This document shows, piece after piece, positions 1 through 23,566 of a DNA stretch of 64,000 nucleotides. Positions within the stretch are counted from its first letter, which is position 1. Every line of letters starts with the position of its first letter. A model generated the notes under the pieces. The model worked only from the letters and a program-made list of their open reading frames with translations. It was not told the DNA's origin and did not search any database. Source of the stretch: Amphiscolops sp. MND2022 (Eukaryota); assembly GCA_964187785.1 (NCBI GenBank), contig OZ076409.1, positions 71,984,001-72,048,000 of the forward strand, read 5' to 3'. Made by a program: the position numbers and the translations under genes.

Positions 1-177
1 GATGTCTTCTACTTTTATCATCATGCAAACGACCTTACCATGTCTCTCTTCTGTCGTCATTTGTACAACGCCACATAGCGTTCCGACGCCCACCGTCTGT
101 GGGCATGCCGAGGCATGCCCTTCGACGACGTATGCCAAATGAGCCATACCCGCACTCTGGAGTGCGGTAGCGGCTAG
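1..177 (+). repeat. Partial unit: 3' tail of an L' unit
   Basis: Matches 34124-34300 (end of the L' unit), including the cassette hairpin CCGCACTC-TG-GAGTGCGG; ends at CTAG 174-177. Confidence 0.9.
99..133 (+). promoter_or_regulatory. Invariant 35-bp junction core with 20-bp palindrome / p53-family-like response element (first of 27 copies)
   Basis: GGGCATGCCG (101-110) + AGGCATGCCC (111-120) matches RRRCWWGYYY x2 with 0 spacer and one mismatch. It is also a perfect 9-bp inverted repeat around GA. Unchanged in every copy I read. Function is inferred. Confidence 0.5.
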
Positions 178-208
178 GTGGGCGGGGGTAATTCCCCAAC
201 AAAAAAAT

Positions 209-236
209 CGGCCGGCGGGTCGGGTCCTGCCGGCCG
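209..236 (+). other. 5' subterminal hairpin, A/L form (CGGCCGGCGGG-TCGGGT-CCTGCCGGCCG)
   Basis: 11-bp stem with one G-T pair; variants present at the start of every A and L unit. Confidence 0.75.
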
Positions 237-2413
237 TCCAAAATCAAAATCCTCCTAGTAGAAAACGGCATGTCAAACGAGCTATTTTTTTATTTAACCA
301 TACGAATTTCACCATTTTTTGCATGCGGCCCTGAAATGGCCATACGAGACGAAGTTCCTGCTGACGTTTTGCGATGTAAATGTTTTATAAAAAGTTATGG
401 CCGATTTGTCACTTACCTAGAAGGGCAAAATGAGGAAAATTTTTACAAAGTCGCTGATAACTCAAAATGTGTTAATTTTTGGACTTTGACTGTGAAACAA
501 GCTTGGAACCTTCATTTCGTGGCTGGGGCATTGGACTGAACACAAAAGATGTAAAGTTTTTACGTTTTTTGAAAATTCGACATTTTTGAAATTTTTTTCA
601 CTACTATCAGTACCCCATATGTCAAAAACACCTCAGAAAAAAATTTTTATTTGCTTTAAATGGGAAACCTTGGTATCCATGGTTTCCGTCAGTACCTACT
701 CGCTGCCAAACGCTCAACAGTTTGCATCCAATGTGAAAATATAATTTTTTTCGAGGTCATAGGTGTTTCACAAGGATTTCTCAACTTAGTATCTATTTAC
801 AAATTGGTCATTTTGAACACATTATTTTCATCGAAGCGTGTCAGATACCACCCTAATGCTCACGAATGGGCCTACTGGCAACGTTGGAACCATTTTTAGT
901 AATAGAAAGTATTAAAAAAATATTTTCACCCGGTCTTCAGTCATTTTTCAGACATTCGGTACTTAACTTAGAAAAATTTCGCATCAAAAACCCATATTTG
1001 GTAGGGTCGAAATTTGAAATTCAGTTTTTTATGCAAAATTATTAACTCTGACGTAACCAGTGGAGCCCATGATACTCAAAAACACGATTGGGACTGGTAT
1101 CAGTGGCTCCAATAACATATGAGCCGCGATAAGACGTTATTCAGAGCAAACGCTCTAAATCGAAGTAAACATCTCTGAAGCCTGGGATCACAGTGAAATG
1201 TGATATCACCAAAAGTTTACTCTTTTTTGTCAATCACTATGTACACAGAGTGCGTAGGGTGAGTTTCAGGACTATAATGAGGTTTTTGAAGTAATCGCGC
1301 TGCTCAAGGGGTGGTATGAGACTATTTTTTCCCATATACTACTACATTTCCATAAATTTGCAGTCCATTGTCTTGGAAAGATAACTTCACAAAAACAATT
1401 TTTCTACTCTATTCAGTTATTAGAATAAAGTTGAACACTGTGGTTGATCAGAAATGCTCAATTCTTTTGGTTTTTTAAAAAATTCCTTCGCATTCGTTAC
1501 ATTTGTGGAAGGAAGGTTATCAGTAGCTCCAAAAAAAAACGAAATTTAGCACGAACAGACATGCAACGATGCAAAGCAAAAACGTTTTTACAACTTCCGA
1601 CGTCATTATTTTACCCAAGAAGATTGAAAATATCATTCGCAATGCTGTCATTCGCTATATATACGATCGCGGTCAATTTACAAACATTTAGATTTCATTG
1701 TTCTGCTTGAAAACCAATTTTTGTCAGGTCGAAATTTTAAATTTTGCCTGGGGAGCAATACCCTTCACGCTGAAGTAAACAGTGGGGCCCAAGTTACTCA
1801 AAAACAAGAAAGAGACTGCTACAATATGTCCTAATAACATATGGACCACGATAGTACGCTTTTCACACAAAAAACTCTCATCCGAAGTAAATATGTTGAA
1901 AGCTTTTAATCACCGTGAGAAGTGATTTCATCAAAAAATAACTCTTTTTTGTCAATCACTATTTACACAGAATTTGTAAAGTTAGTTTGAGTCATGAATT
2001 GAGGCTTTACCGTAATATGGGTTGCTCAAGGTGTTATATAAGACAAAAACTTCCTCTTTTCTACTAGCTTCTTCAAATATTTCAACCCTTTGTCACAATA
2101 AGTTAATATTCAAAATATCTTTGAAATGTATCTTTATGTTGGGGTGAAGTCTAAGAACAATAACTATGATCGAAGAATGCTAGTACTGGTGTTTGAACCA
2201 TGTCCGGATGAACAAATCACAAAATCATCAAAAAATTGTTCCCTTTTTTGGTTATTTTGGCAGTACTAAAAATGTTAGCTGATAAATAATTTTTTCGATG
2301 GCACCATTGGATTCCTCTCAAAAAGTTGGTTATATGACCTGTGTAATAACCCCGTATCTTTTCAATTTAAATATATTTAAAAAGCCAACTATTTTGACCA
2401 AAATCCTAAAAAT

Positions 2414-3675
2414 CATACCATTTCCTAAAAATTTTCAAATGCACCCCATTTGACGTATAAGATAAGCACAGAAAACTATCATTTACCGATCAACTCTACT
2501 CCCATTGTAAATTATTAGAATTTTGTTTAGAATGAATTTTGATGGATATTAAAAAAATTTTCAACCCTCCAAAAATGGGCCAAAATTACACGAAAAAATT
2601 GACCTTAAAATACCAAAATGTCAAAAAATCATCAAAACCACGGCTTCTTGGGGTTCTATCAACTCCGCGTGGTCCACAGAGTATGCTAAAACAGGTTTTA
2701 CCCGTTTTTGAGCAATATGTGAAAAAGCCGACATTTTTGGGAAAGAAAAACATACCATTTCCTAAAAAAATTCAAATGCACGTAATTTGCCGTATTAGAA
2801 TAGCACAGAAAACTATCACATACCAATCAACTCTACTTTCATTGCAGATGAACAGAATTTTGTTTAGAATAAATTTTACCGGATAATAAAAAAATTTGAA
2901 TCCTTCAAAAATGGGCCAAAATTACACGAAAAAATGAACCTTAAAAATTTAAAATGTCAAAAAATCATCAAAACAACAGCTTCTTGGGGTTCTATCAACT
3001 CCACGAGGTCCACAGAGTATGCTAAAACAGGTTTTACCCGTTTTTGAGCAATATGTGAAAAAGCCGACATTTTTGAGAAAGAAAAACATACCATTTCCTA
3101 AAAAAATTCAAATGCACGCCATTTGCCGTATGAAAATAGCACAGAAAACTATCACATACCAATCAACTCTACTTTCATTGCAGATGAACAGAATTTTGTT
3201 TAGAATAAATTTTACCGGATAATAAAAAAATTTGATTCCTTCTAAAATGGGCCAAAATTACACGAAAAAATGGACCTTAAAATTTTAAAATGTCAAAAAA
3301 TCATCAAAACCACGGCTTCTTGGGGTTCTATCAACTCCACGTGGTCCACAGAGTATGCTTAACCCGGTTTTACCCATCTTTGAGCAAAATGTGAAAATAC
3401 CGACATTTTTGGAAAAGAAAAAAAACCATTTTCTAATAAATTTCAAATGCACGCCATTTGCTGTATGAGAATAACATAGAAAGCTGTCACATACCGATCA
3501 ACTCTACTTCCATTGTAGATTATCAGAAGTTTGTTTAGAATAAATTTTGATGGATAATAAAAAAAATTGAATCCATCAAAAATGGGCCAAAATTACACGA
3601 AAAAATTGACCTTAAAATATCAAAATGTCAAAAAATCATCAAAACCACAGTTTCGTGGCGTTCTATCAACTCCAT
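2414..3675 (+). repeat. 336-bp central tandem subrepeat, ~3.8 copies (unit 1)
   Basis: ATGGGCCAAAATTACACG at 2575, 2911, 3247, 3582. Confidence 0.92.
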
Positions 3676-3963
3676 ATGATACCAAACCAGGTACTGCCAA
3701 TCGTTTGAGTTATAATAAAAAAACGTCTTTTTTGGCAAGAATTCCATACCATAAATAATAATCATGTTCCATATAAGAAGCGAATCATTTCAGATATATA
3801 CCCTGCTCATTTTTTTAATATTACCGATTATTAATTTAATAGATGTTTTGAATGTGAGCTTCCTAAAAGGTTCAGGTGTGATGATACGTAAATAGAACCT
3901 TAGTTTCATCGAAATCTCAATTGAATATGTCCAATCTTAACCATCAGATAACAAGAAACACTT

Positions 3964-4006
3964 AAGTACATTCCATCTCCCCATCGGGGGAGATGAGAAT
4001 GTACTT
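3964..4006 (+). other. L-class long hairpin (19-bp stem, one bulged A, ATCG loop)
   Basis: AAGTACATTC-CATCTCCCC-ATCG-GGGGAGATG-A-GAATGTACTT; also at 10712-10754, 33326-33368 and 48010-48052. Confidence 0.85.
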
Positions 4007-4937
4007 TCGAGAAGCCAAATACGTCCAACATTCAAACTTTTGTAACTTTGTATGTAACTCCTGAAACGAAGAAGGAATAAAATTGTTTCTGGTACATATA
4101 TGAGTCTTTACTTCAGCTTCTATTTCTGCTGAACAAAACCATTCGACTCTTTTGCCGGAGTTAAGATCGATTGTATTACCCAGTGAACAAAGGCATGACT
4201 GAAAACGTTTACTACTTTGTTCATAATTTTCCGGCCTTCCGAAATGATGAAACGTCCACATAACTAAGATAGCAAGTGAATGACTGCGAAATGCACCTTA
4301 TTAGATGAGGTAAATAACGTGTAAAACTCTCCTTTATCCTAACATGAGGTTGAGTAATGATCATTTGAGAATAGTTTGATATGTGAATACAATAGTATAA
4401 AACAAGTACATTTTATATGAATAACGCCGTGGAAAGCGTTCAGAAAGGACAGTAGGCTTGTTTGGAACATGTATGTGTGGTGTCCCTTGGTGGCGTTCGC
4501 TTAGTGTATATGTCGAGGGGTATTCGAGTTGTTATGATAGAATTTACACACAACTCTTTTGTTTTTTGTTTTTTTTAAATGTCGTTAAGTACCTGCATTC
4601 TATCCCCTTCTCAGAGATGACGTGAAGTTACGTTTGCTAAATAAATGTCATCGAAAGATCACACTCCCGACGAAATTAACTATCTTAACACGTGTTTAGA
4701 ATTTTAAATAAACAACCGTATAAGATTTTTATATTTCATTGAGTTTGATGAAGTCTTTTGTTCTTCTCACTACTATTTCAACCAATACACATATCCGTTA
4801 CCATATCACATGTCTCCATTAGTACAACGCCACATAGCGTTCCGACGCCCACAGTCTGTGGGCATGCCGAGGCATGCCCTTCGACGACGTATGGCAAATG
4901 GAGCCATGCCCGCCGTCTTTACGGCGGTAGCGGCTAG

Positions 4938-6926
4938 GTGGGCGGGGGTAATTCCCCAACAAAAATTACGGCCGGCGGGTTGGGTCCTGCCGGACGTTCA
5001 AATAGCGCGAAGCATCTAGTAGAAAACAAGGAGTCCTGAAACAGCGATTTTAAAATTGAACCGTTAGAATTTGGTTTTAGATTGCATGCGGCCCTAAAAT
5101 CCCCATACGAATGGAAGTTCCTGCTGGCGTTAAGCGATTGAAATAATATATAAAAAGTTATGGCCCATTTTTGGGTCACCGAGAAGGTCAAAATGAAGAA
5201 AATTTTAACTAAGTTGCTGATAACTCAAAATGTGTTAATTTTTGGACTTTGACTGTGAAACAAGCTTGGAACCTTCATTTCGTGTCTGTGGCATTGCACT
5301 GAACACAAAAGATGTAAAGTTTTCACATTTTTTGAAAATTCGACATTTTTGAATTTTTTTTCACTACTATCAGTACACTATATGTCAAAAACACCTCTGA
5401 AAATTTTTTTTTATTGCTTAAATTTAGCAACCTCGGTATCCATGGTTTCCGTCAGTACCTACTCGCTGCCAAACACTCAACAGTTTGCATCCAATGTGAA
5501 AATAAAATTATTTTCGAGGTCTTAGGTGTTTCACAAGGATTTCTCAACTTAGTATCAATTTACAAATTGGTCATTTTGAACACATTATTTTCATCGAAGC
5601 GTGTCATATACCGCCCTAATGCTCACGAACGGGCCTACTGGCAACGTTGGAACCATTTATAGTAATAAAAAGTTTTAAAAAAATTTTTTCACCCCGTCTT
5701 CAGTCATTTTACACACTTTCGGAACTTAACTTAGAAAAATTTCAACCAAAAACCCATTTTTTGTCAAGTCGAAAATTCAACTTCAGCTTTTTAAGCAAAA
5801 TAAATAAATCTGACATAACCAGTGGGGCCCATGAAACTCAAAACCACGATTGAGACTGGTATCAATGGCTCCAATAACATATGAGTCGCGATAAGACGCT
5901 ATTTTGAGCAAAACATCTCAATTGAGGTAAAGATCTCGCAAGCCAGCGATCACTGTGAAATGTGATTTCATCAAAAATTTACTCTTTTTTGTCAATCACT
6001 ATGTGCACAGAATGCGTAGGGTGCGTTTCAGCACTATAATGAGGTTTTTGAAGGCATCGAGTTGCTCAAGGGGTGGTATGAGACATTTTTGTCCCATATA
6101 CTACTGTAGTTTCCAAAAATTTTACCCCAATATCTGGAAATACAAACTTGACAAAATACTTTCAATTACTTTATTCAAAGGTTACAATATAGATGAACAC
6201 TGTGGTTGATAAGAAACTTTCATCTCTTTCGTTTTCGGAAATATTTCCGTTCGCATGTGTTACATTCATAGCAGAAAAAAAAATCGAAACTGAAAAATAT
6301 GCTATTTTGCTGATATAGAATCGCAATGATTGTGCCTAAAAACTCTTTAAACACTTCTAACGCAACCTTACGCACCCAAAATGATCGAAAATGCTATTCA
6401 CAATGGTGACATGTGCTCTTTCTACGATCCTGGCTGGACAAGGTTTGCATATTTTTCAAGTACCTGTCAGCTAAATCTTGTGATAGCCTTTTCAGTTGGC
6501 CTTGTGTCAACTTGGGAAGGCTATCACATCAAAAAACCATCAACAAAAATAATTTTTGTTTATTGGATCTTACAGTCGATACTTTTTTTCGTGATTCTAT
6601 ACTACCGTTAGTATATTTCATCAGGTCACCTTACGATTGCATTCAGTCTTTGATAAAAACCTATGAACTCAAAGTCACATTTATATAGTTTTTTGCCAGA
6701 AAATAACATCAAAAATATCTAAAATATATAAAATAGAGTCTTTAACATTTTTACGTTTCAAGTTTTTGCCGTTATTAGACCAATCAACGTCCTAGAGCCA
6801 CATCCTGCCACATACTGTACAACGCCACATAGTGTTGCGACGTGCACAGTCTGTGGGCATGCCGAGGCATGCCCTTCGACGACGTATGCCGAATACCGCG
6901 GGCCTACGCCCGCGCTCCCCGGCTAG
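4938..6926 (+). repeat. Unit 2, class A (1989 bp)
   Basis: Junction to junction; A interior; ends with CGCGGGC-CTAC-GCCCGCG hairpin + CTAG. Confidence 0.92.
6479..6528 (+). other. A-class long hairpin ~370 bp upstream of the core
   Basis: TGTGATAGCCTTTTCAGTTGGC-CTTGT-GTCAACTTGGGAAGGCTATCACA; ~22-bp stem with G-T pairs and one bulge; present in all A units. Confidence 0.85.
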
Positions 6927-9900
6927 GTGGGCGGGGGTAATTCCCCAACAAAAAAATCGGCCGGCGGGTCGGGTCCTGCCGGCCGTCCAAAATCAAAATC
7001 CTCCTAGTAGAAAACGGCCGGTCAAACGAGCTATTTTTTTATTTAACCGTTAGAATTTGGGTTTAGATTGCATGCGGCCATGAAATGGCCATACGAATGG
7101 AAGTTCCTGCTGACGTTTTGCGATTGAAACACTTTATAAAAAGTTATGGCCAATTTGTCATTCACCTAGAAGGGCAAAATGAGGAAAATTTTAACAAAGT
7201 CGCTGATAACTCAAAATGTAATAATTTTTGGACTTTGACAGTGAAACAAGCTTGGAACTGTCATTTCGTGGCTGTGGCATTGCACTGAACACAAAAGATG
7301 TAAAGTTTTCACATTTTTTGAAAATTCGACATTTTTGAATTTTTTTTCACTACTATCAGTACACTATATGTCAAAAACGCCTCTGAAAAAAATTTTTATT
7401 TGCTTAAAATTAGAAACCTTGGTATCCATGGTTTCCGTCAGTACCTACTCGCTGCCAAACGCTCAACAGTTTGCATCCAATGTGAAAATATAATTTTTTT
7501 CGAGGTCATAGGTGTTTCACAAGGATTTCTCAACTTAGTATCTATTTACAAATTGGTCATTTTGAACACATTATTTTCATCGAAGCGTGTCAGATACCAC
7601 CCTAATGCTCACGAATGGGCCTACTGGCAACGTTGGAACCATTTTTAGCAATAGAAAGTATTAAAAAAATATTTTCACCCGGTCTTCAGTCATTTTTCAG
7701 ACATTCGGTACTTAACTTAGAAAAATTTCGCATCAAAAACCCATATTTGGTAGGGTCGAAATTTGAAATTCAGTTTTTTATGCAAAATTATTAACTCTGA
7801 CGTAACCAGTGGAGCCCATGATACTCAAAAACACGATTGGGACTGGTATCAGTGGCTCCAATAACATATGAGCCGCGATAAGACGTTATTCAGAGCAAAC
7901 GCTCTAAATCGAAGTAAACATCTCTGAAGCCTGGGATCACAGTGAAATGTGATATCACCAAAAGTTTACTCTTTTTTGTCAATCACTATGTACACAGAGT
8001 GCGTAGGGTGAGTTTCAGGACTATAATGAGGTTTTTGAAGTAATCGCGCTGCTCAAGGTGTGGTATGAGACTATTTTTTCCCATATACTACTACATTTCC
8101 ATAAATTTGCAGTCCATTGTCTTGGAAAGATAACTTCACAAAAACAATTTTTCTACTCTATTCAGTTATTAGAATAAAGTTGAACACTGTGGTTGATCAG
8201 AAATGCTCAATTCTTTTGGTTTTTAAAAAAATTCCTTCGCATTCGTTACATTTGTGGAAGGAAGGTTATCAGTAGCTCCAAAAAAACGAAATTTAGCACG
8301 AACAGACATGCAACGATGCAAAGCAAAAACGTTTTTACAACTTCCGACGTCATTATTTTACCCAAGAAGTTCGAAAATATCATTCGCAATGCTGTCATTC
8401 GCTATATATACGATCGCGGTCAATTTACAAACATTTAGATTTCATTGTTCTGCTTGAAAACCAATTTTTGTCAGGTCGAAATTTTAAATTTTGCCTGGGG
8501 AGCAATACCCTTCACGCTGAAGTAAACAGTGGGGCCCAAGTTACTCAAAAACAAGAAAGAGACTGCTACAATATGTCCTAATAACATATGGACCACGATA
8601 TTACGTTTTTCACACAAAAAACTCTCATCCGAAGTAAATATGTTGAAAGCTTTTAATCACCGTGAGAAGTGATTTCATCAAAAAATAACTCTTTTTTGTC
8701 AATCACTGTTTACACAGAATTTGTAAAGTTAGTTTGAGTCATGAAATGAGGCTTTACCGTAATATGGGTTGCTCAAGGTGTTATATAAGACAAAAACTTC
8801 CTCTTTTCTACTAGCTTCTTCAAATATTTCAACCCTTTGTCACAATAAGTTAATATTCAAAATCTCTTTGAAATGTATCTTTATGTTGGGGTGAAGTCTA
8901 AGAACAATAACTATGATCGAAGAATGCTAGTACTGGTGTTTGAACCATGTCCGGATGAACAAATCACAAAATCATCAAAAAAATGTTCCCTTTTTTGGTT
9001 ATTTTGGCAGTACTAAAAATGTTAGCCGATAAATAATTTTTTCGATGGCACCATTGGATTCCTCTCAAAAAGTTGGTTATATGACCTGTGTAATAACCCC
9101 GTATCTTTTCAATTTAAATATATTTAAAAAGCCAACTATTTTGACCAAAATCCTAAAAATCATACCATTTCCTAAAAATTTTCAAATGCACCCCATTTGA
9201 CGTATAAGATAAGCACAGAAAACTATCATATACCGATCAACTCTACTCCTATTGTAGATTATTAGAATTTTGTTTAGAATGAATTTTGATGAATATTAAA
9301 AAAATTTTGAACCCTCCAAAAATGGGCCAAAATTACACGAAAAAATTGACCTTAAAATACCAAAATGTCAAAAAATCATCAAAACCCAGGCTTCTTGGGG
9401 TTCTATCAACTCCGCGTGGTCCACAGAGTATGCTAAAACAGGTTTTACCCGTTTTTGAGCAATATGTGAAAAAACCGACATTTTTGGGAAAGAAAAACGT
9501 ACCATTTCCTAAAAAAATTCAAATGCACGTCATTTGCCGTATTAGAATAGCACAGAAAACTATCACATACCAATCAACTCTACTTTCATTGCAGATGAAC
9601 AGAATTTTGTTTAGAATAAATTTTACCGGATAATAAAAAAATTTGAATACTTCAAAAATGGGCCAAAAATACACGAAAAAATGGACCTTAAAAATTTAAA
9701 ATGTCAAAAAATCATCAAAACAACAGCTTCTTGGGGTTCTATCAACTCCACGAGGTCCACAGAGTATGCTAAAACAGGTTTTACCCGTTTTTGAGCAATA
9801 TGTAAAAAAGCCGACATTTTTGGGAAAGAAAAACATACCATTTCCTAAAAAAATTCAAATGCACGCCATTTGCCGTATGAAAATAGCACAGAAAACTATC

Positions 9901-11686
9901 ACATACCAATCAACTCTACTTTCATTGCAGATGAACAGAATTTTGTTTAGAATAAACTTTACCGGATAATAAAAAAATTTGATTCCTTCTAAAATGGGCC
10001 AAAATTACACGAAAAAATGGACCTTAAAATTTTAAAATGTCAAAAAATCATCAAAACCACGGCTTCTTGGGGTTCTATCAACTCCACGTGGTCCACAGAG
10101 TATGCTTAACCCGGTTTTACCCATCTTTGAGCAAAATGTGAAAATACCGACATTTTTGGAAAAGAAAAACATGCCATTTTCTAATAAATTTCAAATGCAC
10201 GCCATTTGCTGTATGAGAATAACACAGAAAGCTGTCACATACCGATCAACTCTACTTCCATTGTAGATTATCAGAAGTTTGTTTAGAATAAATTTTGAAG
10301 GATAATAAAAAAATTTGAATCCATCAAAAATGGGCCAAAATTACACGAAAAAATTGACCTTAAAATATCAAAATGTCAAAAAATCATCAAAACCACAATT
10401 TCTTGGCGTTCTATCAACTCCATATGATACCAAACCAGGTACTGCCAATCGTTTGAGTTATAATAAAAAAACTTCTTTTTTGGCAAGAATTCCATACCAT
10501 AAATAATAATCATGTTCCACATAAGAAGCGAATCATTTCAGATATATACCCTGTTCATTTTTTTAATATTACCGATTATTAATTTAATAGATGTTTTGAA
10601 TGTGAGCTTCCTAAAAGGTTCAGGTGTGATGATACGTAAATAGAACCTTAGTTTCATCGAAATCTCAATTGAATATGTCCAATCTTAACCATCAGATAAC
10701 AAGAAACACTTAAGTACATTCCATCTCCCCATCGGGGGAGATGAGAATGTACTTTCGAGAAGCCAAATACGTCCAACATTCAAACTTTTGTAAGTTTGTA
10801 TGTAACTCCTGAAACGAAGAAGGAATAAAATTGTTTCTGGTACATACATGAGTCTTTACTTCAGCTTCTATTTCTGCTGAACAAAACCATTCGACTCTTT
10901 TGCCGGAGTTAAGATCGATTGTATTACCCAGTGAACAAAGGCATGACTGAAAACGTTTACTACTTTGTTCATAATTTTCCGGCCTTCCGAAATGATGAAA
11001 CGTCCACATAACTAAGATAGCAAGTGAATGACTGCGAAATGCACCTTATTAGATGAGGTAAATAACGTGTAAAACTCTCCTTTATCCTAACATGAGGTTG
11101 AGTAATGATCATTTGAGAATAGTTTGATATGTGAATACAATAGTATAAAACAAGTACATTTTATATGAATAACGCCGTGGAAAGCGTTCAGAAAGGACAG
11201 TAGGCTTGTTTGGAACATGTATGTGTGGTGTCCCTTGGTGGCGTTCGCTTAGTGTATATGTCGAGGGGTATTCGAGTTGTTATGATAGAATTTACACACA
11301 AGTCTTTTGTTTTTTGGTTTTTTTAAAATGTCGTTAAGTACCTGCATTCTATCCCCTTCTCAGAGATGACGTGAAGTTACGTTTGCTAAATAAATGTCAT
11401 CGAAAGATCACACTCCCGACGAAATTAACTATCTTAACACGTGTTTAGAATTTTAAATAAACAACCGTATAAGATTTTTTTATTTCATTGAGTTTGATGA
11501 AGTCTTTTGTTCTTCTCACTACTATTTCAACCGATACACATATCCGTTACCATATCACATGTCTCCATTAGTACAACGCCACATAGCGTTCCGACGCCCA
11601 CAGTCTGTGGGCATGCCGAGGCATGCCCTTCGACGACGTATGGCAAATGGAGCCATGCCCGCCGTCTTTACGGCGGTAGCGGCTAG
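6927..11686 (+). repeat. Unit 3, class L (4760 bp)
   Basis: Near-identical to unit 1 apart from a different 5' allele; 336-bp subrepeats at ~9161-10423. Confidence 0.92.
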
Positions 11687-13674
11687 GTGGGCGGGGGTAA
11701 TTCCCCAACAAAAATTACGGCCGGCGGGTTGGGTCCTGCCGGACGTTCAAATAGCGCGAAGCATCTAGTAGAAAACAAGGAGTCCTGAAACAGCGATTTT
11801 AAAATTGAACCGTTAGAATTTGGTTTTAGATTGCATGCGGCCCTAAAATCCCCATACGAATGGAAGTTCCTGCTGGCGTTAAGCGATTGAAATAATATAT
11901 AAAAAGTTATGGCCCATTTTTGGGTCACCGAGAAGGTCAAAATGAGGAAAATTTTAACTAAGTTGCTGATAACTCAAAATGTGTTAATTTTTGGACTTTG
12001 ACTGTGAAACAAGCTTGGAACCTTCATTTCGTGGCTGTGGCATTGCACTGAACACAAATGATGTAAAGTTTTCACATTTTTTGAAAATTCGACATTTTTG
12101 AATTTTTTTCACTACTATCAGTACACTATATGTCAAAAACACCTCTGAAAAAATTTTTTATTTGCTTAAAATTGGAAACCTTGGTATCCATGGTTTCTGT
12201 CGGAACCTACTCGCTGCCAAACACCCAACAGTTTGCATCCAATGTGAATTTAAAATTTTTTTCGAGGTCATAAGTGTTTCACAAGGTTTTCATAACTTAG
12301 TATTAAACTACAAACTGGTCATTTTCAACATAATATCTTTGTCGAGGCATGTCGGATATAGTCCTATTGCTCACGAACGGTCCTACTGGCAACGTAATAA
12401 CCATTTATAGAAATGTAAAGTTATAAAAAAAATTTTCACCCGGTCTTCAGTCATTTTTCAGTCATTCGGAACTTAACTTAGAAAAATTTCGACCAAAATA
12501 TCCATTTTTTGTCAGGTCGAAAAATCAAATTCAGATTTTTAAGCAAAATTATTAACTCTGACGTAACCCATGGGGCCCATGATACTCAAAACAACGATTG
12601 ACACTGGTATCAATGGCTCCAATAGCATATGAGTCGCGATAAGACGTTATTTTGAGCATTACGTCTCAATTGAGGTAAAGATCTCGCAAGCCAGTGATCA
12701 CTGTGAAATGTGATTTCATCAAAAATTTACTCTTTTTTGTCAATCACTATGTGCACAGAATGCGTAGGGTGCGTTTCAGCACTATAATGAGGTTTTTGAA
12801 GGCATCGAGTTGCTCAAGGGGTGGTATGAGACATTTTTGTCCCATATACTACTGTATTTTCCAAAATTTTTAGCCCAAAATCTGCAAATACAAACTTGAC
12901 AAAATACTTTCAACTACTTTATTCAAAGGTTACAATATAGATGAACACTGTGGTTGATCAGAAACTTTCATCTCTTTCGTTTTCCGAAATATTTCCCTTC
13001 GCATGTGTAACATTCGTAGCAGAAAAAAAAATCGAAACTGAAAAATACGCAATTTTGCTAGAATAGAAACGCAATGATTGTGCCTAAAAACTCTTTAAAC
13101 ACTTCTAACGCAACCTTACGCACCCAAAATGATCGAATATGCTATTCACAATGGTGACATGTGCTCTTTCTACGATCCTGGCTGGACAAGGTTTGCATAT
13201 TTTTCAAGTACCTGTCAGCTAAATCTTGTGATAGCCTTTTCAGTTGGCCTTGTGTCAACTTGGGAAGGCTATCACATCAAAAAACCATCAACAAAAATAA
13301 TTTTTGTTTATTGGATCTTACAGTCGATACTTTTTTTCGTGATTCTATACTACCATTAGTATATTTCATCAGGTCACCTTACAATTGCATTCAGTCTTTG
13401 ATAAAAACCTATGAACTCAAAGTCACATTTATATATTTTTTTGCCAGAAAATAACATCAAAAATATCTAAAATATATAAAATAGAGTCTTTAACATTTTT
13501 ACGTTTCAAGTTTTTGCCGTTATTAGGCCAATCAACGTCCTAGAGCCACATCCTGCCACATACTGTACAACGCCACATAGTGTTGCGACGTGCACAGTCT
13601 GTGGGCATGCCGAGGCATGCCCTTCGACGACGTATGCCGAATACCGCGGGCCTACGCCCGCGCTCCCCGGCTAG
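11687..13674 (+). repeat. Unit 4, class A (1988 bp)
   Basis: Junction to junction; A interior. Confidence 0.92.
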
Positions 13675-15658
13675 GTGGGCGGGGGTAATTCCCCAACAAA
13701 AATTACGGCCGGCGGGTTGGGTCCTGCCGGACGTTCAAATAGCGCGAAGCATCTAGTAGAAAACAAGGAGTCCTGAAACAGCGATTTTAAAATTGAACCG
13801 TTAGAATTTGGTTTTAGATTGCATGCGGCCCTAAAATCCCCATACGAATGGAAGTTCCTGCTGGCGTTAAGCGATTGAAATAATATATAAAAAGTTATGG
13901 CCCATTTTTGGGTCACCGAGAAGGTCAAAATGAAGAAAATTTTAACTAAGTTGCTGATAACTCAAAATGTGTTAATTTTTGGACTTTGACTGTGAAACAA
14001 GCTTGGAACCTTCATTTCGTGGCTGTGGCATTGCACTGAACACAAAAGATGTAAAGTTTTCACATTTTTTGAAAATTCGACATTTTTGAATTTTTTTTCA
14101 CTACTATCAGTACACTATATGTCAAAAACACCTCTGAAAAATTTTTTGATTTGCTTAAATTTAGAAACCTCGGTATCCATGGTTTCCGTCAGTGCCTACT
14201 CGCTGCCAAACACTCAACAGTTTGCATCCAATGTGAAAATAAAAAATTTTTCGAGGTCTTAGGTGTTTCACAAGGATTACTCAACTTAGTATCAATTTAC
14301 AAATTGGTCATTTTGAACACATTATTTTCATCGAAGCGTGTCATATACCGCCCTAATGCTCACGAACGGGCCTACTGGCAACGTTGGAACCATTTATAGT
14401 AATAAAAAGTTTTAAAAAAATTTTTTCACCCCGTCTTCAGTCATTTTACTCACTTTCGGAACTTAACTTAGAAAAATTTCACCCAAAAACCCATTTTTTG
14501 TCATGTCGAAAATTCAAATTCAGCTTTTTAAGCAAAATAAATAAATCTGACATAACCAGTGGGGCCCATGAAACTCAAAACCACGATTGAGACTGGTATC
14601 AATGGCTCCAATAACATATGAGTCGCGATAAGACGTTATTTTGAGCAAAACATCTCAATTGAGGTAAACATCTCGCAAGCCAGGGATCACTGTGAAAAGT
14701 GATTTAATCAAAATTTTACTCATTTTCGTCAATCACTATGTGCACAAAGTGCGTTGGGTGAATTCCAGCATTATAATTAGGTTTTTGAAGGCATCGGGTT
14801 GCTCAAGGGGTGGTATGAGACATTTTTTTCCGATATACTACTGTATTTTCTTAAGCTTTTAGCCCATTATCTTCAAAAACTAACTTGACAAAAAACTTTC
14901 AATTATTTTATTCAAAGGTTACAATATAGATGAACCCTGTGGTTGATCAGAAACTTTCATCTCTTTCGTTTTCCGAAATAATTTCCTTCACATGTGTTAC
15001 ATTTGTAACATAAAAAAATCCAAAACTAAAAATTACGCTATTTTGCTAATATGGAATCGCAATGATTGTGCCTAAAAACTCTTTAAATACTTCTAACACG
15101 ACCTTGCGGACACAAAATGATTGAAAATGCCATTCACAATGGTGACATGTGCTCTTTCTACGATCCTGACTGAACAAGTTTTGCATTTTGTTCATGTACC
15201 TGTCAATTGAATTTTGTGATAGCCTTTCAAGTTGGCCTTGCGTCAACTTTGGAAGGCTATCACATCAAAAAATTTTCATCAAAAATCTTTTTTGTTTATT
15301 GGATATAACAGTCGATACCTTTTTTTGGTGATTCTATACTACCGTTAGTACCTTCCATTAGGTCACCAGACGATTACATTCTGTCTTTGATAAAAATCTA
15401 TGAACTCAAAGTCATAATTATATATTTTTTGCCCAAAAAACATCAAAAAAATCAAAAATATTTAAAATAGAGTCTTTAACTTTTTTTCGTTTTAACTTTC
15501 TGCCGTTCTTAGGCCAATCAACGTCCTAGAGCCACATCCAGTCATACTGTACAACGCCACATAGTGTTGCGACGTGCACGGTCCGTGGGCATGCCGAGGC
15601 ATGCCCTTCGACGACGTATGCCGAATGCACTGCGGCGACGCCCGCAGTCCAAGGCTAG
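13675..15658 (+). repeat. Unit 5, class A (1984 bp)
   Basis: A interior; ends with ACTGCGG-CGACGC-CCGCAGT hairpin + CTAG. Confidence 0.92.
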
Positions 15659-15691
15659 GTGCGGGGGGGTAACCCCTACAAAGATATTGGA

Positions 15692-15715
15692 GGATTCGGG
15701 TAGGGTCCTGAATCC
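15692..15715 (+). other. 5' subterminal hairpin, B form (GGATTCGGG-TAGGGT-CCTGAATCC)
   Basis: 9-bp stem; loop region and offset from the junction match the A form, while the outer stem sequence differs. Confidence 0.75.
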
Positions 15716-17170
15716 GATCTTAGTACCGCCAGCTATCAGTAGAAAATTTCCCTCAAAAACCGGGATCTCGGGAACTAACCGTAGGATTTGAAAGTTGGAG
15801 CGGCCCCCACCAGATTTTCCCGAATAGATCGCCCCCCACCGGGCTCCATACCCCGGAAAATTTTTTTTTGGCCACACGGGCGACAGTTAGGGGGTCATTT
15901 TAGGGGTAAAATTCATATTGGTCCATATAACTTTTTTCCTGTTGGTTTAAAAGTTTGGGAACCCTGCTAAAGGTTTTTCGACCATGTTGCAAGGGCTCCG
16001 GAGGTGCAAACCAAATTTTTCTATCTTGAAGCTATCTCCAAGTACCCCCCCGCTCAAACCGTTATTTTTCCGGAAACGCAGGTTTTTGACCCGGAAGGAG
16101 TCGTCTGAGCGCGGGGTCGTTAGGTGATGTTTTGGGGACGGCCTTGAGACAAAGTGGGGGACAAGTAGTTTGCCAACCTCAATTCACCCCCCGGACGGGA
16201 AATGACCGTTATATGAGCGTGAAAAATGCCCCCCTCCACGTTTTACCGCTATTTCCGGTGTGAAGGTGTGGGAGTAGCGCGTCGGGTGCCATATATCAAA
16301 AGTAGGTTTAGACAAGGATCTATCAAAAACATGTGGTTTGGGACCCCCTGACCCAACCCGTTAGCGGGAAATGGGGCTTCCGCCTCCTTTTTTTTCGGTT
16401 AAAAACGGAAAATGGGCATTGAGGGGTAAATATCTCGTGAACGCGTGGAGCTACGGTGTCCGTCACTACTACAAGGTTTCATACCCATGATATGGTGCCT
16501 TCAGGGGGGCAAACAGATTACCGCTATCTATCACCGTTACGGACTTGGCCCCCCAGCCCAACCGCTATGTGACCGGAAATGTCACTTTTTGAGCCCAAAG
16601 GGTCGGTCCCAGCCAGGGAACGTTAGGTAACTTTTTGTAGTACTCATTGAGACGAGTTGGGGGACATAGTTTCAGTCACCCCCCGTTACCCCTTGTGACC
16701 GGAAATGACCGTTATGTGGGTAAAATTGGGATTTTTGTACTTTTTGAAGGGCAATTAGGTGCGGAAGGAGTGGTAATAGGTGCTTGGACACTATATGATG
16801 GAATGGAGGACGTGAGGCGAACATTCAGACATAACCGTTATGTTGACCCTAAAGTCCCCCTGGTACCGTAAACGACCGGAAATGGTCAAATTTTGTGTCT
16901 ATTGGGTACAAATGTTTGGTATTTTGTAAATAAAAGTATCTATTAGGTGTTTCGACGGTCTGCAGTAGTGAACATAGTCATGAAACCTTGTGGGGGGTAA
17001 CGGTATATAGCACCGGAAGTCCAAAACGTTAGAGACGGGATAGGTTTTTCCGTTTTAAAATGTCTTTCGGCGTACTTTTGTCAACTAATATGGAATATTT
17101 TTTAAAATTAAAGTTTTTCCATATAGTTTCAGAGACTCCCAAACCTCAAACAACATAACCGTTACCTTAT

Positions 17171-17214
17171 GATAGCCTTTCAAGTTGGCCTGGTGTCAAC
17201 TTGGAAGGGCTATC
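17171..17214 (+). other. B-class long hairpin homologous to the A-class hairpin
   Basis: GATAGCCTTTCAAGTTGGC-CTGGT-GTCAACTTGGAAGGGCTATC; present in all complete B units. Confidence 0.85.
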
Positions 17215-17634
17215 CTTCAAAAATCGTTGATCAAGTGTGTTTTTGGGTATGTTTGAATCATTTTAGAATCAATTAGAGCTTCAAGAAAAATTTGCCAACG
17301 ACAAAAACTATGTCGCGATGATTCCGTTATTAGAGTAATAGTTAACAAAATATTGATTAAGTTGATTTTGTACATTTCAAATGTGTCCTTTATGCCAGAA
17401 AACCTTTTTACCAAACAAATGGTATTGATTGGATTGTATATAACAGGTAATAAAAGTTCAAATTGATTATTACGTTTTATTATGTAAGCTGAAACGTCAT
17501 ATTATAGTTTAATTAACGTCAACGCCACATACTTTACACCAACGCCCACCGTCTGTGGGCATGCCGAGGCATGCCCTTCGACGACGTATACCAAACACCC
17601 TCCATATCTACACCCTAACCGCGGTAGCAGCTAG

Positions 17635-19612
17635 GTGGGCGGGGGTAATTCCCCTTCAAAAAATTCGGCCGGCGGGTTGGGTCCTGCCGGACGTCAAATA
17701 GCAGAAAATACCTATTAGGAAACGGCGACACAAAACGGCGATTTTTAAATCTAACCACAATTTTTTGGACTTGGAGTGCATGCGGCCCTGAAATGCCCAT
17801 ACGAATCGAAGTTCCTGCTGACGTTAAGCGATTGAAATAATATATAAAAAGTTATGGCCCATTTTTGGGTCACCGAGAAGGGCAAAATGAGGAAAATTTT
17901 TACAAAGTCGCTGATAACTCAAAATGTGTTAATTTTTGGACATTGACTGTGAAACAAGCTTGGAACCTTCATTTCGTGGCTGTGGCATTGCACTGAACAC
18001 AAAAGATGTAAAGTTTTTACATTTTTTGAAAATTCGACATTTTTGAGCATCAAACATCAGCACCCCATATGTCAAAAACGCCTCAGAAAAAAATTTTTAT
18101 TTGCTTTAAATTGGAAACCTTGGTATCCATGGTTTCTGTCGGAACCTACTCGCAGCCAAACACCCAACAGTTTGCATCCAATGTGAGAATAAAAATTTTT
18201 TCTGGGTCATAAGCGTTTCACAAGGATTTCTCAACTTAGTATTAATTTACAAAATGGTCATTTTGAACACAAAATTTTCATCGAGGCTTGTCGGCTATAG
18301 GCCTAATGTTCTAGAACGGTCCCACTGGCAACGTAGGAACCATTTATAGTAATTGAAAGTTATAAAATAATTTTTTTCACCCGTTCTTCAGTCATTTTTC
18401 AGACATTCGGAACTTATCTTAGAAAAATTTCGTCTCAAACACCCATTTTTTGACAGGTCGAAAAATCAAATTAGGCTTTTTAAGCACAATTATTAACTCT
18501 GACGTAACCCATGGGGCCCATGATACTCAAAACAACGATTGACACTGGTATCAATGGCTCCAATAACATATGAGTCGCGATAAGACGTTATTTTGAGCAA
18601 TACGTCTCAATTGAGGTAAACATCTCGCAAGCCTGGGATCACAGTGGAATGTAAATTCATCAAAAATTTACTCATTTTTGTCAATTACTATGTGCACAGA
18701 GTGCGTAGGGTGAGTTCCAGCACTATAATGAGGTTTTTGAAGGCATCGGGTTGCTCAAGGGGTGGTATGAGACATTTTTTTTCTATATACTACTGTATTT
18801 TCCAAAACGTTTAGCCCATTATCTCGAAAAACTAACTTGACAAAATACTTTCAATGATTTTATTCAAAGGCTACAATGTAGATGAACCCAGTGGTTGATC
18901 AGAAACTTTCATCTCTTTCGTTTTCCGAAATATTTCCCTTCGCATGTGTTACATTTGTAGCAGAAAAAAAATCGAAACTGAAAAATACGATATTTTGCTA
19001 ATATAGAATCGCAATGATTGTGCCTAAAAACTCTTTAAACACTTCTAACGCGACCTTACGCACCCAAAATGATCAAAAATGCTATTCACAATGGTGACAT
19101 GTGCTCTTTCAACGATCCTGACTGAACAATTTTCGCAAATTATTCAAGTACCTGTTAACTGAATCTCGTGATAGCCTTTTAAGTTGGCCTTGTGTCAACT
19201 TGGGAAGGCTATCACATCAAAAAATTTTCAACAAAAATACTTTTTGTTTATTGGAAATGACAGTCGATATATAATTTCGTGATTCTATACTACCGTTAGT
19301 ACCTTCCATTAAGTCACCTGACGATTGCTTTCAGTCTTTGATAAATACCTATGAACTCGAAGTCTTATTTATAAATTTTTTGCTAAAAATAAACATCAAA
19401 ACTATCCAAATTATTTAAAATTGAGTCTTTACCGTTTTTGTTTTTCTTTTTCTACTGTTATTAGGCTCATCAACTTCCTACAGCCACGCTCTCTGTCATA
19501 CTGTACAACGCCACATAGTGTTGCGACGTGCACGGTCTGTGGGCATGCCGAGGCATGCCCTTCGACGACGTATGCCGAATGCACTGCGGCGACGCCCGCA
19601 GTCCAAGGCTAG
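17635..19612 (+). repeat. Unit 7, class A (1978 bp)
   Basis: Junction to junction; A interior with a small replacement/deletion near 18047-18060. Confidence 0.92.
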
Positions 19613-21583
19613 GTGCGGGGGGGTAACCCCAACAAATATATTGGAGGATTCGGGTAGGGTCCTGAATCCGATTTTAACTCTAATAGCTATCGATAGGAAA
19701 TCTTGCAAAAATTTCGGGATCTCGTGATCTAACCATAGGATTTTAAAGTTGGAGCGGCCCCCACCAGATTTTCCGAAAATTAGCGCCCCCCACCGGTTTC
19801 CATACCCCGGAAAATTTTTTTCTGGCCACACGGGCGACCGTTAGGGGGTCATTTTAGGGGTAAAATTCATATTGGGCCACATAACTTTTTTTCTGTTGAT
19901 TTAAAACTTTGGAACCCTGCTAAAAGTTTCTTGACCGTGTTGCAGGGGCCCCGAAGGTCCAAACCAAATTTTTCTATCTTGAAGCTATCTCCAAGTACCC
20001 CCCCGCTCAAACCGTTATTTTTCCGGAAACGCAGGTTTTTGACCCGGAAGGAGTCGTCTGAGCGCGGGGTCGTTAGGTGATGTATTGGGGACGGCCTTGA
20101 GACGAAGTGGGGGACAAGTAGTTTGCCAACCTCAATTTACCCCCCGGACGGGAAATGACCGTTATATGAGCGTGAAAAATGCCCCCCTCCACGTTTTACC
20201 GCTATTTCCGGTGTGAAGGAGTGGGAGTAGCGCGTCGGGTGTTATATAACAAAAGTAGGTTTAGACAAGGACCTATCGGAAACATGTAGTTTGGGACCCC
20301 CTGGACCAACCCGTTAGCGGGAAATGGGGCTTCCGCCTCCTTTTTTTAGTGCTAAAACCGTAAAATGGGCATTGAGGGGTAAATATCTCGTGAACGCGTG
20401 GAGCAATCGTGTCCATCACTACTACAAGGTTTCATACCCATGATATGGTGCCTTCAGGGGGGCAAACAGATTTCCGCTATCTATCACCGTTACCGACTTG
20501 TCCCCCCAGCCTAACCGCTATGTGACCGGAAATGTCACTTTTTGAGCCCAAAGGGTCGGACCCAGCCTGGGAACGTTAGGTAACTTATTGTAGTACTCAA
20601 TGAGACGAGTTGGGGGATATAGTTTCAGTCAACCCCCGTTACCCCTTGGGACCGGAAATGACCGTTATGTGGGTAAATTTGCAATTTTTATACTTTTTCA
20701 AGTGTATTTAGGTGCGGAAGGAGTGGTAATAGGTGCTTGGACACTATATGAGGTAAGGGAGGACGTGAGGCGAGCATTCGGAAATAACCGTTATGTTGAC
20801 CCTAAAGTCCCCCTAGTACCGTAAACGACCGGAAATGGTCAAATTTTGTGTCTATTGGGTACAAATGTTTTGTATTTTGTAGATAAAAGTATCTATTAGG
20901 TGTTTCGACGGTCTACAGTAGTGAACATAGTCATGAAACCTTGTGGGGGGTAACGGTATATAGCACCGGAAGTCAAACCGTTGGAGACAGGATAGGTTTT
21001 TTGGTTTTAAAATGTCTTTCGGCGTAATTTTTTCGACTCTTGTGGACTATTTTTAAAAATTAACGTTTTTCCATATAGTTTCAGAGACTCCGAAACCTCA
21101 ACCAACATAACCGTTACCTTATGATAGCCTTTCAAGTTGGCCTGGTGTCAACTTGGAAGCGCTATCCTTCTGAAATCGTTAATCAAGAGTGTTTTTGGGT
21201 AGGTATATATTGCATTAGTACCAATTAGAGCTTCATCAACAGTGTACCAACGACAAAAACTATGCCGTCATGATTCCGTTATTAGAATCATAGTGAGCAA
21301 ATTGTTGAAAAAAATGGTTTTTTCCATACAAAATGTGTCCTAAATGCCAGGAAACCTATTTACCTAACAAATGGTATTAATTGGAATGTTTGTAACAGAT
21401 TTATAAAAGTTCAAATTGAATATTACATTTCATTTTGGAAGCTGAAACGTCATATTTTAGTTTAATTAACGTCAACGCCACACACTTTACATCAACGCAC
21501 ACCGTCTGTGGGCATGCCGAGGCATGCCCTTCGACGACGTATGACAAATCCTTATCAAACGACGCCCGTACATCCCGGGCTAG
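19613..21583 (+). repeat. Unit 8, class B (1971 bp)
   Basis: B interior; ends GCCCG-TACATCC-CGGGC-TAG. Confidence 0.92.
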
Positions 21584-23566
21584 GTGGGCGGGGGTAATTC
21601 CCCTTCAAAAAATTCGGCCGGCGGGTTGGGTCCTGCCGGACGTCAAATAGCAGAAAATACCTATTAGGAAACGGCGACACAAAACGGCGATTTTTAAATC
21701 TAACCACAATTTTTTGGACTTGGAGTGCATGCGGCCCTGAAATGCCCATACGAATCGAAGTTCCTGCTGACGTTAAGCGATTGAAATAATATATAAAAAG
21801 TTATGGCCCATTTTTGGGTCACCGAGAAGGGCAAAATGAGGAAAATTTTAACTAAGTCGCTGATAACTCAAAATGTGTTAATTTTTGGACATTGACTGTG
21901 AAACAAGCTTGGAACCTTCATTTCGTGGCTGTGGCATTGCACTGAACACAAAAGATGTAAAGTTTTTACATTTTTTGAAAATTCGACTTATTTGAAATTT
22001 TTTTCACTACTATCAGTACCCCATATGTCAAAAACGCCTCAAAAAAAAATTTTATTTGCTTTAAATTGGAAACCTTGGTATCCATGGTTTCTGTCGGAAC
22101 CTACTCGCAGCCAAACACCCAACAGTTTGCATCCAATGTGAAAATAAAAATTTTTTCGGGGTCATAAGCGTTTCACAAGGATTTCTCAACTTAGTATTAA
22201 TTTACAAAATGGTCATTTTGAACATAATATTTTCATCGAGGCTTGTCGGCTATAGCCTTAAAGTTCTAGAACGGTCCCACTGGCAACGTAGCAACCATTT
22301 ATAGTAATATAAAAGGTTAAAAATTTTTTTCACCCGGTCTTCAGTCATTTTTCAGTCATTCGGAACTTAACTTAGAAAAATTTCGACCAAAATACCCATT
22401 TTTTGTCAGGTCGAAAATTCAAATTCAGATTTTTAAACAAAATTATTAACTCTGACGTAACCCATGGGGCCTATGATTTTCAAAACAACGATTGACACTG
22501 GTATCAATGGCTCCAATAACATATGAGTCGCGATAAGACGTTTTTTTGAGCAATACGTCTCAATTGAGGTAAAGATCTCGCAAGCCAGCGATCACTGTGA
22601 AATGCGATTTCATCAAAAATTTACTCATTTTTGTCAATCACTATGTGCACAGAATGCGTAGGGTGCGTTTCAGCACTATAATGAGGTTTTTGAATGCATC
22701 GAGTTGCTCAAGGGGTGGTATGAGACATTTTTGTCCCATATACTACTGTATTTTCCAAAATTTTTAGCCCAATATCTGGAAATACAAACTTGACAAAATA
22801 CTTTCAACTACTTTATTCAAAGGTTACAATATAGATGAACACTGTGGTTGATCAGAAACTTTCATCTCTTTCGTTTTCCGAAATATTTCCCTTCGCATGT
22901 GTTATATTTGAAGCAGAAAAAAAATCGAAACTGAAAAATACGCTATTTTGCTAATATAGAATCGCAATGATTGTGCCTAAAAACTCTTTAAACACTTCTA
23001 ACGCGACCTTACGCACCCAAAACGATCGAAAATGCTATTCACAATGGTGACATGTGCTCTTTCTACGATCCTGGCTGGACAAGGTTTGCATATTTTTCAA
23101 GTACCTGTCAGCTGAATCTTGTGATAGCCTTTTAAGTTGGCCTTGTGTCAACTTGGGAAGGCTATCACATCAAACAACCATCAACAAAAATAATTTTTGT
23201 TCATTGGATATTACAGTTGATACCTTTTTTCGTGATTCTATACTACCGTTAGTATATTCCATGAGGTCACCTTACGATTGCATTCAGACTTTGATAAAAA
23301 CCTATGAACTCAAAGTCACATTTATATATTTTTTGCCCAAAAAAAATCATCAAAAACATCTAAAACATCTAAAATAGAGTCTTTAACGTTTTTACGTTTC
23401 AAGTTTTTGCCGTTATTAGGCTCATCAACTTCCTACAGCCACGCTCTCTGTCATTAGTACAACGCCACATAGTGTTGCGACGTGCACGGTCTGTGGGCAT
23501 GCCGAGGCATGCCCTTCGACGACGTATGCCGAATACCGCGGGCCTACGCCCGCGCTCCCCGGCTAG
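21584..23566 (+). repeat. Unit 9, class A (1983 bp)
   Basis: Junction to junction; A interior. Confidence 0.92.

Follow-up and report, generated by a model that had tools for sequence, protein, structure and literature searches.

Organisation of the array

The window, by which we mean the whole stretch of 64,000 nt that was analysed, is filled by a head-to-tail array of repeated units in a single orientation. The array consists of 26 complete and two partial units and continues past both window edges. Three unit classes, named A, B and L, were distinguished, and class L ends in the same right-end module as classes A and B.

1..64000, plus strand: mixed head-to-tail array
178..4937, 6927-11686, 29531-34300 and 44224-48984, plus strand: class L units, about 4.76 kb
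4938..6926, plus strand: class A unit, as an example of 13 complete copies of 1978-1993 nt (about 1.98 kb)
50969..52962, plus strand: class B unit, as an example of nine complete copies of 1971-1994 nt (about 1.98 kb)
62870-64000, plus strand: partial class B unit at the right edge of the window
2409-3674, 9156-10422, 31760-33096 and 46454-47720: 336-bp tandem repeat (3.8-4 copies) in the class L units

The class L units are composed of a first 1.5 kb similar to class A, about 3.8-4 copies of the 336-bp repeat and a 3' part of their own. The interiors of classes A and B are not alignable. What these two classes have in common is confined to the right-end module, a hairpin of 44 nt and a weak similarity of the left end. 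The class A copies show a mutual identity of 84-100%, and the units inside one class are generally patchworks within this range. When the array was cut at CTAG/GTG, the start class of a unit predicted its end class in all 26 complete units.

In none of the 26 units was the closest relative the adjacent unit. For example, units E14 and E17 are 99.8% identical and have different neighbours. Since a neighbour is never the closest relative, the units move one by one, and a concatemer copied from a single template was ruled out for the same reason. Seven consecutive class B units lie at 50969-64000, and most class B ends are devoid of a terminal hairpin. Neighbours within this run share just 86-92% identity, which rules out a simple read-through concatemer.

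Classes A and B are of equal length (1971-1994 nt) with unrelated interiors, and the unit spanned by a related metagenome contig, L062, measures about 1896 nt. If unit length is constrained to roughly 2 kb, the cause might be the size of a circle, the number of nucleosomes or a helper that packages the DNA, all of which are guesses. The class B interior contains a 503-nt self-match, weaker than the repeats of class L, with spacings of 167-168 nt, which suggests that the interiors were assembled from old repeats of about 168 nt. Moreover, each class B unit carries 4-5 CCGGAART and 7-9 ACCGTTA motifs, which we take to be ETS-like and MYB-like, respectively; the corresponding numbers in the A and L units are 0 and 0-2. 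The observed/expected ratio of CpG is 1.0, i.e., there is no depletion. Undepleted CpG speaks against a vertebrate or heavily methylated repeat. The host would be a eukaryote, perhaps an invertebrate.

The window is non-coding. It contains 18 open reading frames of at least 100 aa, the longest of which does not exceed 192 aa, and none of the 92 stop-to-stop frames from four of the 26 complete units matched a Pfam family at the curated cut-off. No tRNA was found in the window.

The right-end module and the invariant palindrome

Every class ends in a module that contains a palindrome within an invariant block.

66..75, plus strand: upstream box CAACGCCACA
99..133, plus strand: first copy of the 35-nt invariant block, identical in 27 of 27 copies
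101..120, no strand assigned: 20-nt palindrome GGGCATGCCGAGGCATGCCC with an 8-bp stem and a CGAG loop
134..177, plus strand: variable 3' segment ending in CTAG
4858, 6853, 11607, 13601, 15585, 17555, 19539, 21508, 23493, 25480, 27474, 29457 and 34222: starts of block copies 2-14
36215, 38199, 40182, 42177, 44148, 48905, 50895, 52883, 54858, 56850, 58826, 60797 and 62791: starts of block copies 15-27

The distance from the end of the palindrome to the 3' end of the unit is 52-58 nt. GGGCATGCCGAGGCATGCCC occurs 27 times without mismatch on the plus strand of the window and was absent from all 100 dinucleotide shuffles. The first-pass annotation had described a 35-bp block unchanged in all copies, with flanks and interiors differing between classes, and both statements were confirmed. 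Invariance covers exactly 35 nt in 27 of 27 copies, namely all 20 palindrome positions, 2 nt upstream and 13 nt downstream; neither the loop nor the G at position 10, which deviates from the p53 consensus discussed below, nor the 13-nt tail ever varies. Both flanks remain class-linked in 27 of 27 copies. The proposed spacing of about 2 kb applies to 22 of the 26 palindrome-to-palindrome intervals (1969-1995 nt), and the other four measure 4754-4765 nt.

At the 12-mer level, the block is the sole sequence common to all 26 complete units. The module is nearly invariant over more than 35 nt, approximately between positions -17 and +38 relative to the start of the palindrome, and folds into a 34-nt imperfect palindrome that can be parsed as 13-8-13. 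The box CAACGCCACA, located 35 nt (18/27) or 37 nt (9/27) before the palindrome, belongs to the same right-end module. Within class A (13 units), the block sits in the longest invariant run, of 38 columns, a length reached by 0.15% of 2000 permutations. In class B (nine units), its run of 43 columns is tied for the longest (0.35% of 2000 permutations) with a second 43-column run in the class B interior.

Such identity could also arise in a functionless block by gene conversion between the classes, whose longest shared homology it is. The patchwork composition of the units within each class (84-100% identity), the other 43-column run inside class B and the last 20 nt of the unit ends, which are common to different classes, are consistent with this explanation. 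It is contradicted by the class linkage of the flanks on either side of the block, by the three unrelated 3' interiors (A, B and L) that all end in the module, and by an invariance that is improbable even within class A alone. We therefore regard conversion as a distinctly unlikely cause. As three unrelated interiors end in the module, the palindrome appears to be needed by all three classes here, and its class-linked flanks indicate that it is not the exchange point. Likewise, the 35-nt block was rejected as a recombination or boundary site, because the units switch inside GCTAGGTG, 67-73 nt downstream of the palindrome start.

The palindrome hairpin shows no compensatory change in any copy, in contrast to other hairpins of the same units, in which such changes are present. 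Since this applies to the loop as well, the palindrome is presumably read by its sequence, and the cruciform proposed in the first-pass annotation is disfavoured as its only role.

The junction at which unit classes switch

173..180, plus strand: junction GCTAGGTG (CTAG/GTG), found at every one of the 27 junctions and absent from the rest of the window

The junction follows every palindrome, and classes switch solely inside it. Different classes are joined at seven of the 27 junctions, four times as an A end with a B start and three times as a B end with an A start. The start that comes after one identical A end is of class A in seven cases and of class B in two. As the same end precedes either start, the exchange is confined to 8-9 nt. 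We infer the exact cut position within GCTAGGTG; the outside contigs L060 and L062 limit the shared part to CTAGGTG.

CTAG, which fits the CTRR 3' end of Helitron1 elements, was found at 27 of 27 junctions, and every unit starts with GTG (27/27). On the minus strand, the base pair following CTAG varies, and the sequence to the left of the junction is variable. Each unit is thus flanked by CTAG(GTG), and in a tandem array a shared repeat is indistinguishable from an element end that equals its target. In folds of the window and of the outside contigs L059-L062, a right-end stretch of the CCAC/CGCCC type often pairs across CTAG with the GTGG of the next unit, at a varying position.

The left end and the hairpins of the units

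178..240, plus strand: unit left end, starting with GTG and containing a small G/C hairpin followed by a CGGGTNGGGTCCTG-capped stem, common to the window and L059-L062
216-229, plus strand: CGGGTNGGGTCCTG cap, exactly 38 nt past the junction in 27 of 27 cases
6482..6525, plus strand: 44-nt internal hairpin of classes A and B, present in 22 of 22 short units in six variants with G-T pairs on the plus strand
3965..4005, no strand assigned: 41-nt internal hairpin of class L, of a different sequence, present in four of four L units about 933 nt before the unit end

The left-end stem was aligned from six window copies and the four outside loci. It covaries, as six of the 11 pairs changed on both sides, and 84.5% of the cells were paired, compared with at most 50.5% in the slid controls; part of this excess is built in, since the structure was drawn from the same sequences.

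The A and L ends (18/18) carry a GC-rich hairpin of 18-20 nt with a perfect stem of 7-8 bp, which ends 10-12 nt before the CTAG end. These terminal hairpins comprise five different sequences, with shuffle p values of 0.002-0.03 each. Of the nine B ends, six are without a terminal hairpin, and the other three carry a stem of 5 bp that stops 3 nt short of the end. The 44-nt hairpin of classes A and B ends about 400-417 nt before the unit end, and the long hairpin exceeds every other interior window in stability in all 26 units. The G-T pairs of the hairpins fall on the plus strand.

A shared junction of four to eight bases fits tyrosine-recombinase elements as well. Under this explanation, circles would be excised and integrated by a Crypton-like recombinase, with CTAG or GCTAGGTG as a short direct repeat and the palindrome as an accessory (arm-type) site. 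The confinement of the crossover to 8-9 nt and the 13-8-13 parsing of the 34-nt imperfect palindrome agree with it, and Cryptons with 4-6-bp terminal direct repeats have been proposed to move as circles (PMC3212892). However, no exchange takes place at the palindrome, both flanks of which are class-linked, and the variable sequence left of the junction leaves no inverted binding arms around the crossover; a Crypton crossover with inverted arms of 11-13 bp was rejected on this basis. Moreover, single-strand chemistry is indicated by the strand bias of the G-T hairpins and by the terminal hairpin located 10-12 nt before CTAG, and animal Cryptons were without terminal repeats in the same paper. 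We consider movement by a tyrosine recombinase unlikely.

Relatives outside the window

Metagenome contigs were searched with a pattern composed of the junction and the left-end cap, which yielded four contigs (L059, L060, L061 and L062). In each of them, CTAG is followed by GTGG and the free position is occupied by A, neither of which was demanded by the search pattern. Outside the searched motif, L060 showed strong homology downstream (49.7 bits), and L059, L061 and L062 showed weak similarity of 1.0-2.3 bits (scores as high were reached by 0, 1 and 0 of 100 shuffles, respectively). L059 and L062 share the same left end and have different right ends upstream. L061 closes on itself as a unit of 1399 nt, which represents a circle or a collapsed tandem. 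In L061 and L062, a long hairpin lies 276 and 404 nt before the junction, respectively.

GCATGC is absent from the whole units in L061 and L062, where any p53 match with two half-sites has at least three mismatches, and the palindrome is also absent from the 93 nt upstream of the L060 junction. A palindrome that is needed by three classes here and is missing from two related whole units appears to be lineage-specific. The first-pass annotation had offered it as the binding site of the mobilising enzyme; as L061 and L062, with their weak homology outside the motif, are without it, it is not a family-wide enzyme site, and the proposal is retained only for a local right-end module. At positions 242-280, L061 has a long hairpin with CACATGTG in each arm, in which two CATG cores lie 23 nt apart and do not fit the p53 consensus.

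Traces of the unit classes of the window were found in four sequencing runs, with shares of 0.06-0.14, and the contigs of these runs had depths of mostly 2-7. In a contig of run X1, a B-type end is followed by an A start, a combination in which this particular end does not occur in the window. There was no RNA run among the listed holders of the window sequence.

The exact 35-mer was not found in viral contigs, nor a 27-mer of the block in metagenome contigs. An 18-mer occurred at 58 loci in prokaryote genomes, none of which matched the window beyond 24 nt, and these were taken as chance or terminator-like hairpins. A relaxed palindrome gave four loci in viral contigs, all of them unrelated. 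The junction pattern gave none there, and a looser version gave L067, which was dismissed as chance, being coding-like DNA without the stem. A blastn search with 4 kb comprising one A and one B unit gave no match to phages or plasmids.

RNA searches

No Rfam family reached its gathering score across the 64 kb, and two weak matches in 9 kb were at the level of chance. The window contains no A-run of 12 or more. Readings of the units as spliced-leader, ribozyme, LTR/TRIM or CRESS-origin sequences were rejected, having neither Rfam support nor A tails. The hammerhead and CRESS motifs occur once and twice, respectively, in the 64 kb. A primer-binding-like octamer has 12 occurrences, of which the one in unit 1 lies about 0.9 kb downstream of the unit start.

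Segments resembling tRNA are present in L059 (940-1460) and on the minus strand of L062; the best Rfam tRNA match, with 21.9 bits and an E value of 0.53, is below threshold, and ARAGORN reported no tRNA in these segments. Related units with such segments suggest that other lineages may carry other candidate host-factor sites as cargo.

These observations bear on the explanation that the units are transcribed and move through RNA in a retrozyme-, SINE- or TRIM-like manner, the module being the promoter of the next unit and the hairpins RNA structures. The G-U-compatible pairs on one strand, the position of the module directly upstream of the next unit's start and the sub-threshold tRNA-like segments would all suit it. 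Against this stand the lack of any Rfam family or ribozyme match and of A-runs, the absence of truncated 5' ends and a switch point of 8-9 nt in place of a long terminal repeat, and we regard movement through RNA as very improbable.

The match to the p53-family consensus

The consensus of the p53 family consists of two RRRCWWGYYY half-sites, with CATG as the strongest core and GG/CC as the strongest flanks (PMC4323202), and the two-half-site consensus is likewise given in PMC3485254. The palindrome was compared with this consensus allowing a spacer of 0-13 nt, and two half-sites were found in 27 of 27 copies. The match of 19/20 with zero spacer and two CATG cores reported in the first-pass annotation is correct, with one mismatch in the first half-site and none in the second in every copy. 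Each arm of the palindrome is itself palindromic, for which the chance is 1 in 256.

A second site of this kind was found in class L:

4454-4474, 11202-11222 and 48500-48520: second p53-like site, 19/20 with a 1-nt spacer, in three of the four L units

In the diverged L unit at 29531-34300 this site is degraded.

The first-pass annotation had allowed that the match may be coincidental. The probability is about 3e-4 per palindrome with 8-bp arms and 8e-5 with CATG cores, which makes coincidence improbable; chance helped by symmetry is still one option.

The explanation that follows from the match is that the same mobile family carries a true p53/p63 response element, acquired in the host lineage and kept by selection in three classes. 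In the germ line or upon DNA damage, for example, binding could open the left end of the following unit at a distance of 52-58 nt; alternatively, the host could use the site to silence the array. In favour of this, the site combines the 19/20 match with zero spacer, both CATG cores and GG/CC flanks, at the low chance probability given above. Self-palindromic arms are expected of a protein binding as a dimer of dimers, the lack of compensatory change means that the site is read as sequence, and its absence from two related whole units is what a host-specific addition would show. There is also a precedent in a non-autonomous DNA transposon, the zebrafish EnSpm-N6_DR, which has working p53 sites (PMC3485254).

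On the other side, the variation typical of p53 sites, with fixed cores, free degenerate positions and a constraint ending at the 20-mer, was not observed: all 12 degenerate R/Y positions are constant, position 10 always carries the non-consensus G and the invariance continues 13 nt past the site, none of which p53 would demand. The second site of the 19/20 type, found in three of the four L units, was lost in the fourth. The exact 20-mer is also present at eight of the 58 prokaryotic loci, and 22 of the 58 lie in stems longer by at least three pairs, so the sequence arises as a plain hairpin without p53 too. Finally, the worm (nematode) Cep-1 gave no activation in yeast from such GC-flanked elements (PMC4323202).

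Taken together, we hold a true response element to be possible, though less probable than not. Invariance past the needs of p53 points to an additional constraint, which would be compatible with binding, and a role as a p53-family site may possibly overlap with a module read by the mobilising machinery. In an animal host whose p53/p63 is of the ordinary kind, the palindrome would probably be bound whichever explanation holds.

Proposed mechanism

The explanation that we favour, at about even odds, is that the palindrome forms the core of a right-end module read by the mobilising machinery, and that the units are gene-less rolling-circle elements inserting behind each other's CTAG. The units would represent one unclassified family of non-autonomous elements, most likely moved by an HUH-type transposase encoded elsewhere; no transposase was found among the frames of four units that were compared with Pfam. 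The unit would run from GTG to CTAG on the plus strand. The transposase would nick at CTAG/G, the plus strand would be peeled off from the conserved left end, and strand displacement would end at the next CTAG, behind a terminator hairpin. The copy would then be inserted behind another CTAG. As every unit ends in CTAG, insertion would rebuild the target, and copies would stack head to tail. The right-end module of about 55 nt would be required in cis by all three classes in this host, and its sequence would most simply be read by the local transposase or its partner. The p53 match would then be either chance aided by symmetry or a second, overlapping use.

Several observations count for a rolling circle: the unit-wise shuffling, the hairpins biased to the plus strand, the combination of hairpin and CTAG in 18 of the 27 ends and the left end common to the outside loci. 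The six of nine B ends without a terminal hairpin, and the three in which it lies just 3 nt from the end, count against it, as do the missing 5' TC and A/T target of Helitron1 and the missing inverted repeats of the Helitron2 type. If the palindrome is a transposase site, its absence from L061 and L062 means that partner-specific right ends would be needed. The rolling-circle reading leaves unexplained the p53 fit at about 1e-4, the self-palindromic arms and the equal length of classes A and B.

A further variant joins both ideas. Here, the units would belong to an undescribed group of rolling-circle elements of eukaryotes, with a CTAG/GTG nick site, a left end capped by a hairpin and a unit length of mostly about 2 kb, which form mixed arrays by homing to such ends. 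A strong p53/p63 site would have become fixed in all classes of this host, 52-58 nt before the origin of the following unit, and p53 itself would activate mobilisation, or else be titrated by the array, in germ-line cells or upon DNA damage. We regard this variant as doubtful.

Comparison with known systems

No description of the present ends or of the exact motifs was found in the literature searched, and the family may have an entry in Repbase or Dfam.

The array resembles non-autonomous Helitron1 elements (HLE1; Helraiser/Helibat) in having no coding capacity, no terminal inverted repeats and precise head-to-tail junctions (PMC4778049, PMC5876387, PMC11417382). Further similarities are the CTAG 3' end behind a hairpin of 18-20 nt located 10-12 nt upstream (18 of 27 ends) and the internal satellite-like repeats. 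In Helraiser, a 19-bp palindrome 11 nt upstream of the CTAG end acts as a terminator, and circles with CTAG/TC junctions are formed (PMC4778049); tandem Helitron arrays are also known (PMC5876387). Unlike Helitron1, however, the units start with GTG and not with TC, so that the junction is CTAG/GTG in place of CTAG/TC. The array also differs in its conserved two-hairpin left end, the invariant palindrome module and the long internal hairpin, as well as in the nine of 27 ends without a canonical hairpin and in neighbours that are never the closest copies. Assignment to Helitron1 was rejected, as neither the 5' TC nor the A/T target described in PMC11417382 was found.

With Helitron2/Helentron elements (HINE, DINE-1, Cg_HINE), the array shares hairpins at both ends and satellite-like repeats between conserved end modules (PMC3627910, PMC7492417). 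This assignment was also rejected, since there are no terminal inverted repeats of the 8-15-nt class, no 5' T and no TT target as given in those papers, and no GTCY microsatellite was seen in the window. An 11-nt inverted repeat of the Helitron2 type with at most one mismatch, sought between the first 130 and the last 160 nt, was absent from 25 of the 26 units, and the sole match was chance-like and made up of A/T. Pairings of 6-8 nt, or containing G-T, do appear across the junction in folds.

In IS91-type elements, the element end equals a tetranucleotide target, which regenerates the target and allows head-to-tail stacking. The IS91 family follows a rolling-circle route and, like the array, has no inverted repeats or target duplication and has dissimilar origin and terminator ends (PMC5714925). 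In contrast to the array, this family is bacterial and uses another tetranucleotide; the array itself had no match in the prokaryote, phage or plasmid collections.

Replitrons, whose partner is a Rep HUH protein (GYxxK), are HUH transposons with a direct repeat of short length at their termini and a hairpin at the right end (PMC10288648), and the repeat and hairpin of the array would be compatible with these. They differ in being described from algae, non-seed plants and protists, and in having fuzzy right ends and variable target duplications in Chlamydomonas, in contrast to the exact junctions of the array.

As regards the palindrome, the zebrafish EnSpm-N6_DR is likewise a non-autonomous element with a near-consensus two-half-site p53 element in every copy (PMC3485254). 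Its sites are dispersed near genes and about 93% conserved, whereas those of the window lie in a tandem array, are 100% invariant, form part of a longer invariant module beside the element end and are known from sequence. If a p53-family protein does bind, a p53 site would have been fixed next to the origin of a transposon while CpG is undepleted in the genome, with a bearing on whether the p53 family restrains mobile elements outside vertebrates or is exploited by them. If it does not bind, the palindrome cautions that a 19/20 match to p53 can result from the symmetry of a hairpin.

The family fits none of the Helitron, Helentron, Replitron and Crypton definitions tested, and its enzyme is needed to place it relative to Replitrons and Cryptons. 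A further Helitron clade in Paramecium indicates that other end types exist (PMC13085455). The family recurs in other metagenome contigs, and CTAG/GTG together with the CGGGTNGGGTCCTG-capped stem provides precise ends that can be used for finding the missing transposase. On the present analysis, the array would work like a non-autonomous Helitron or an IS91-type element.
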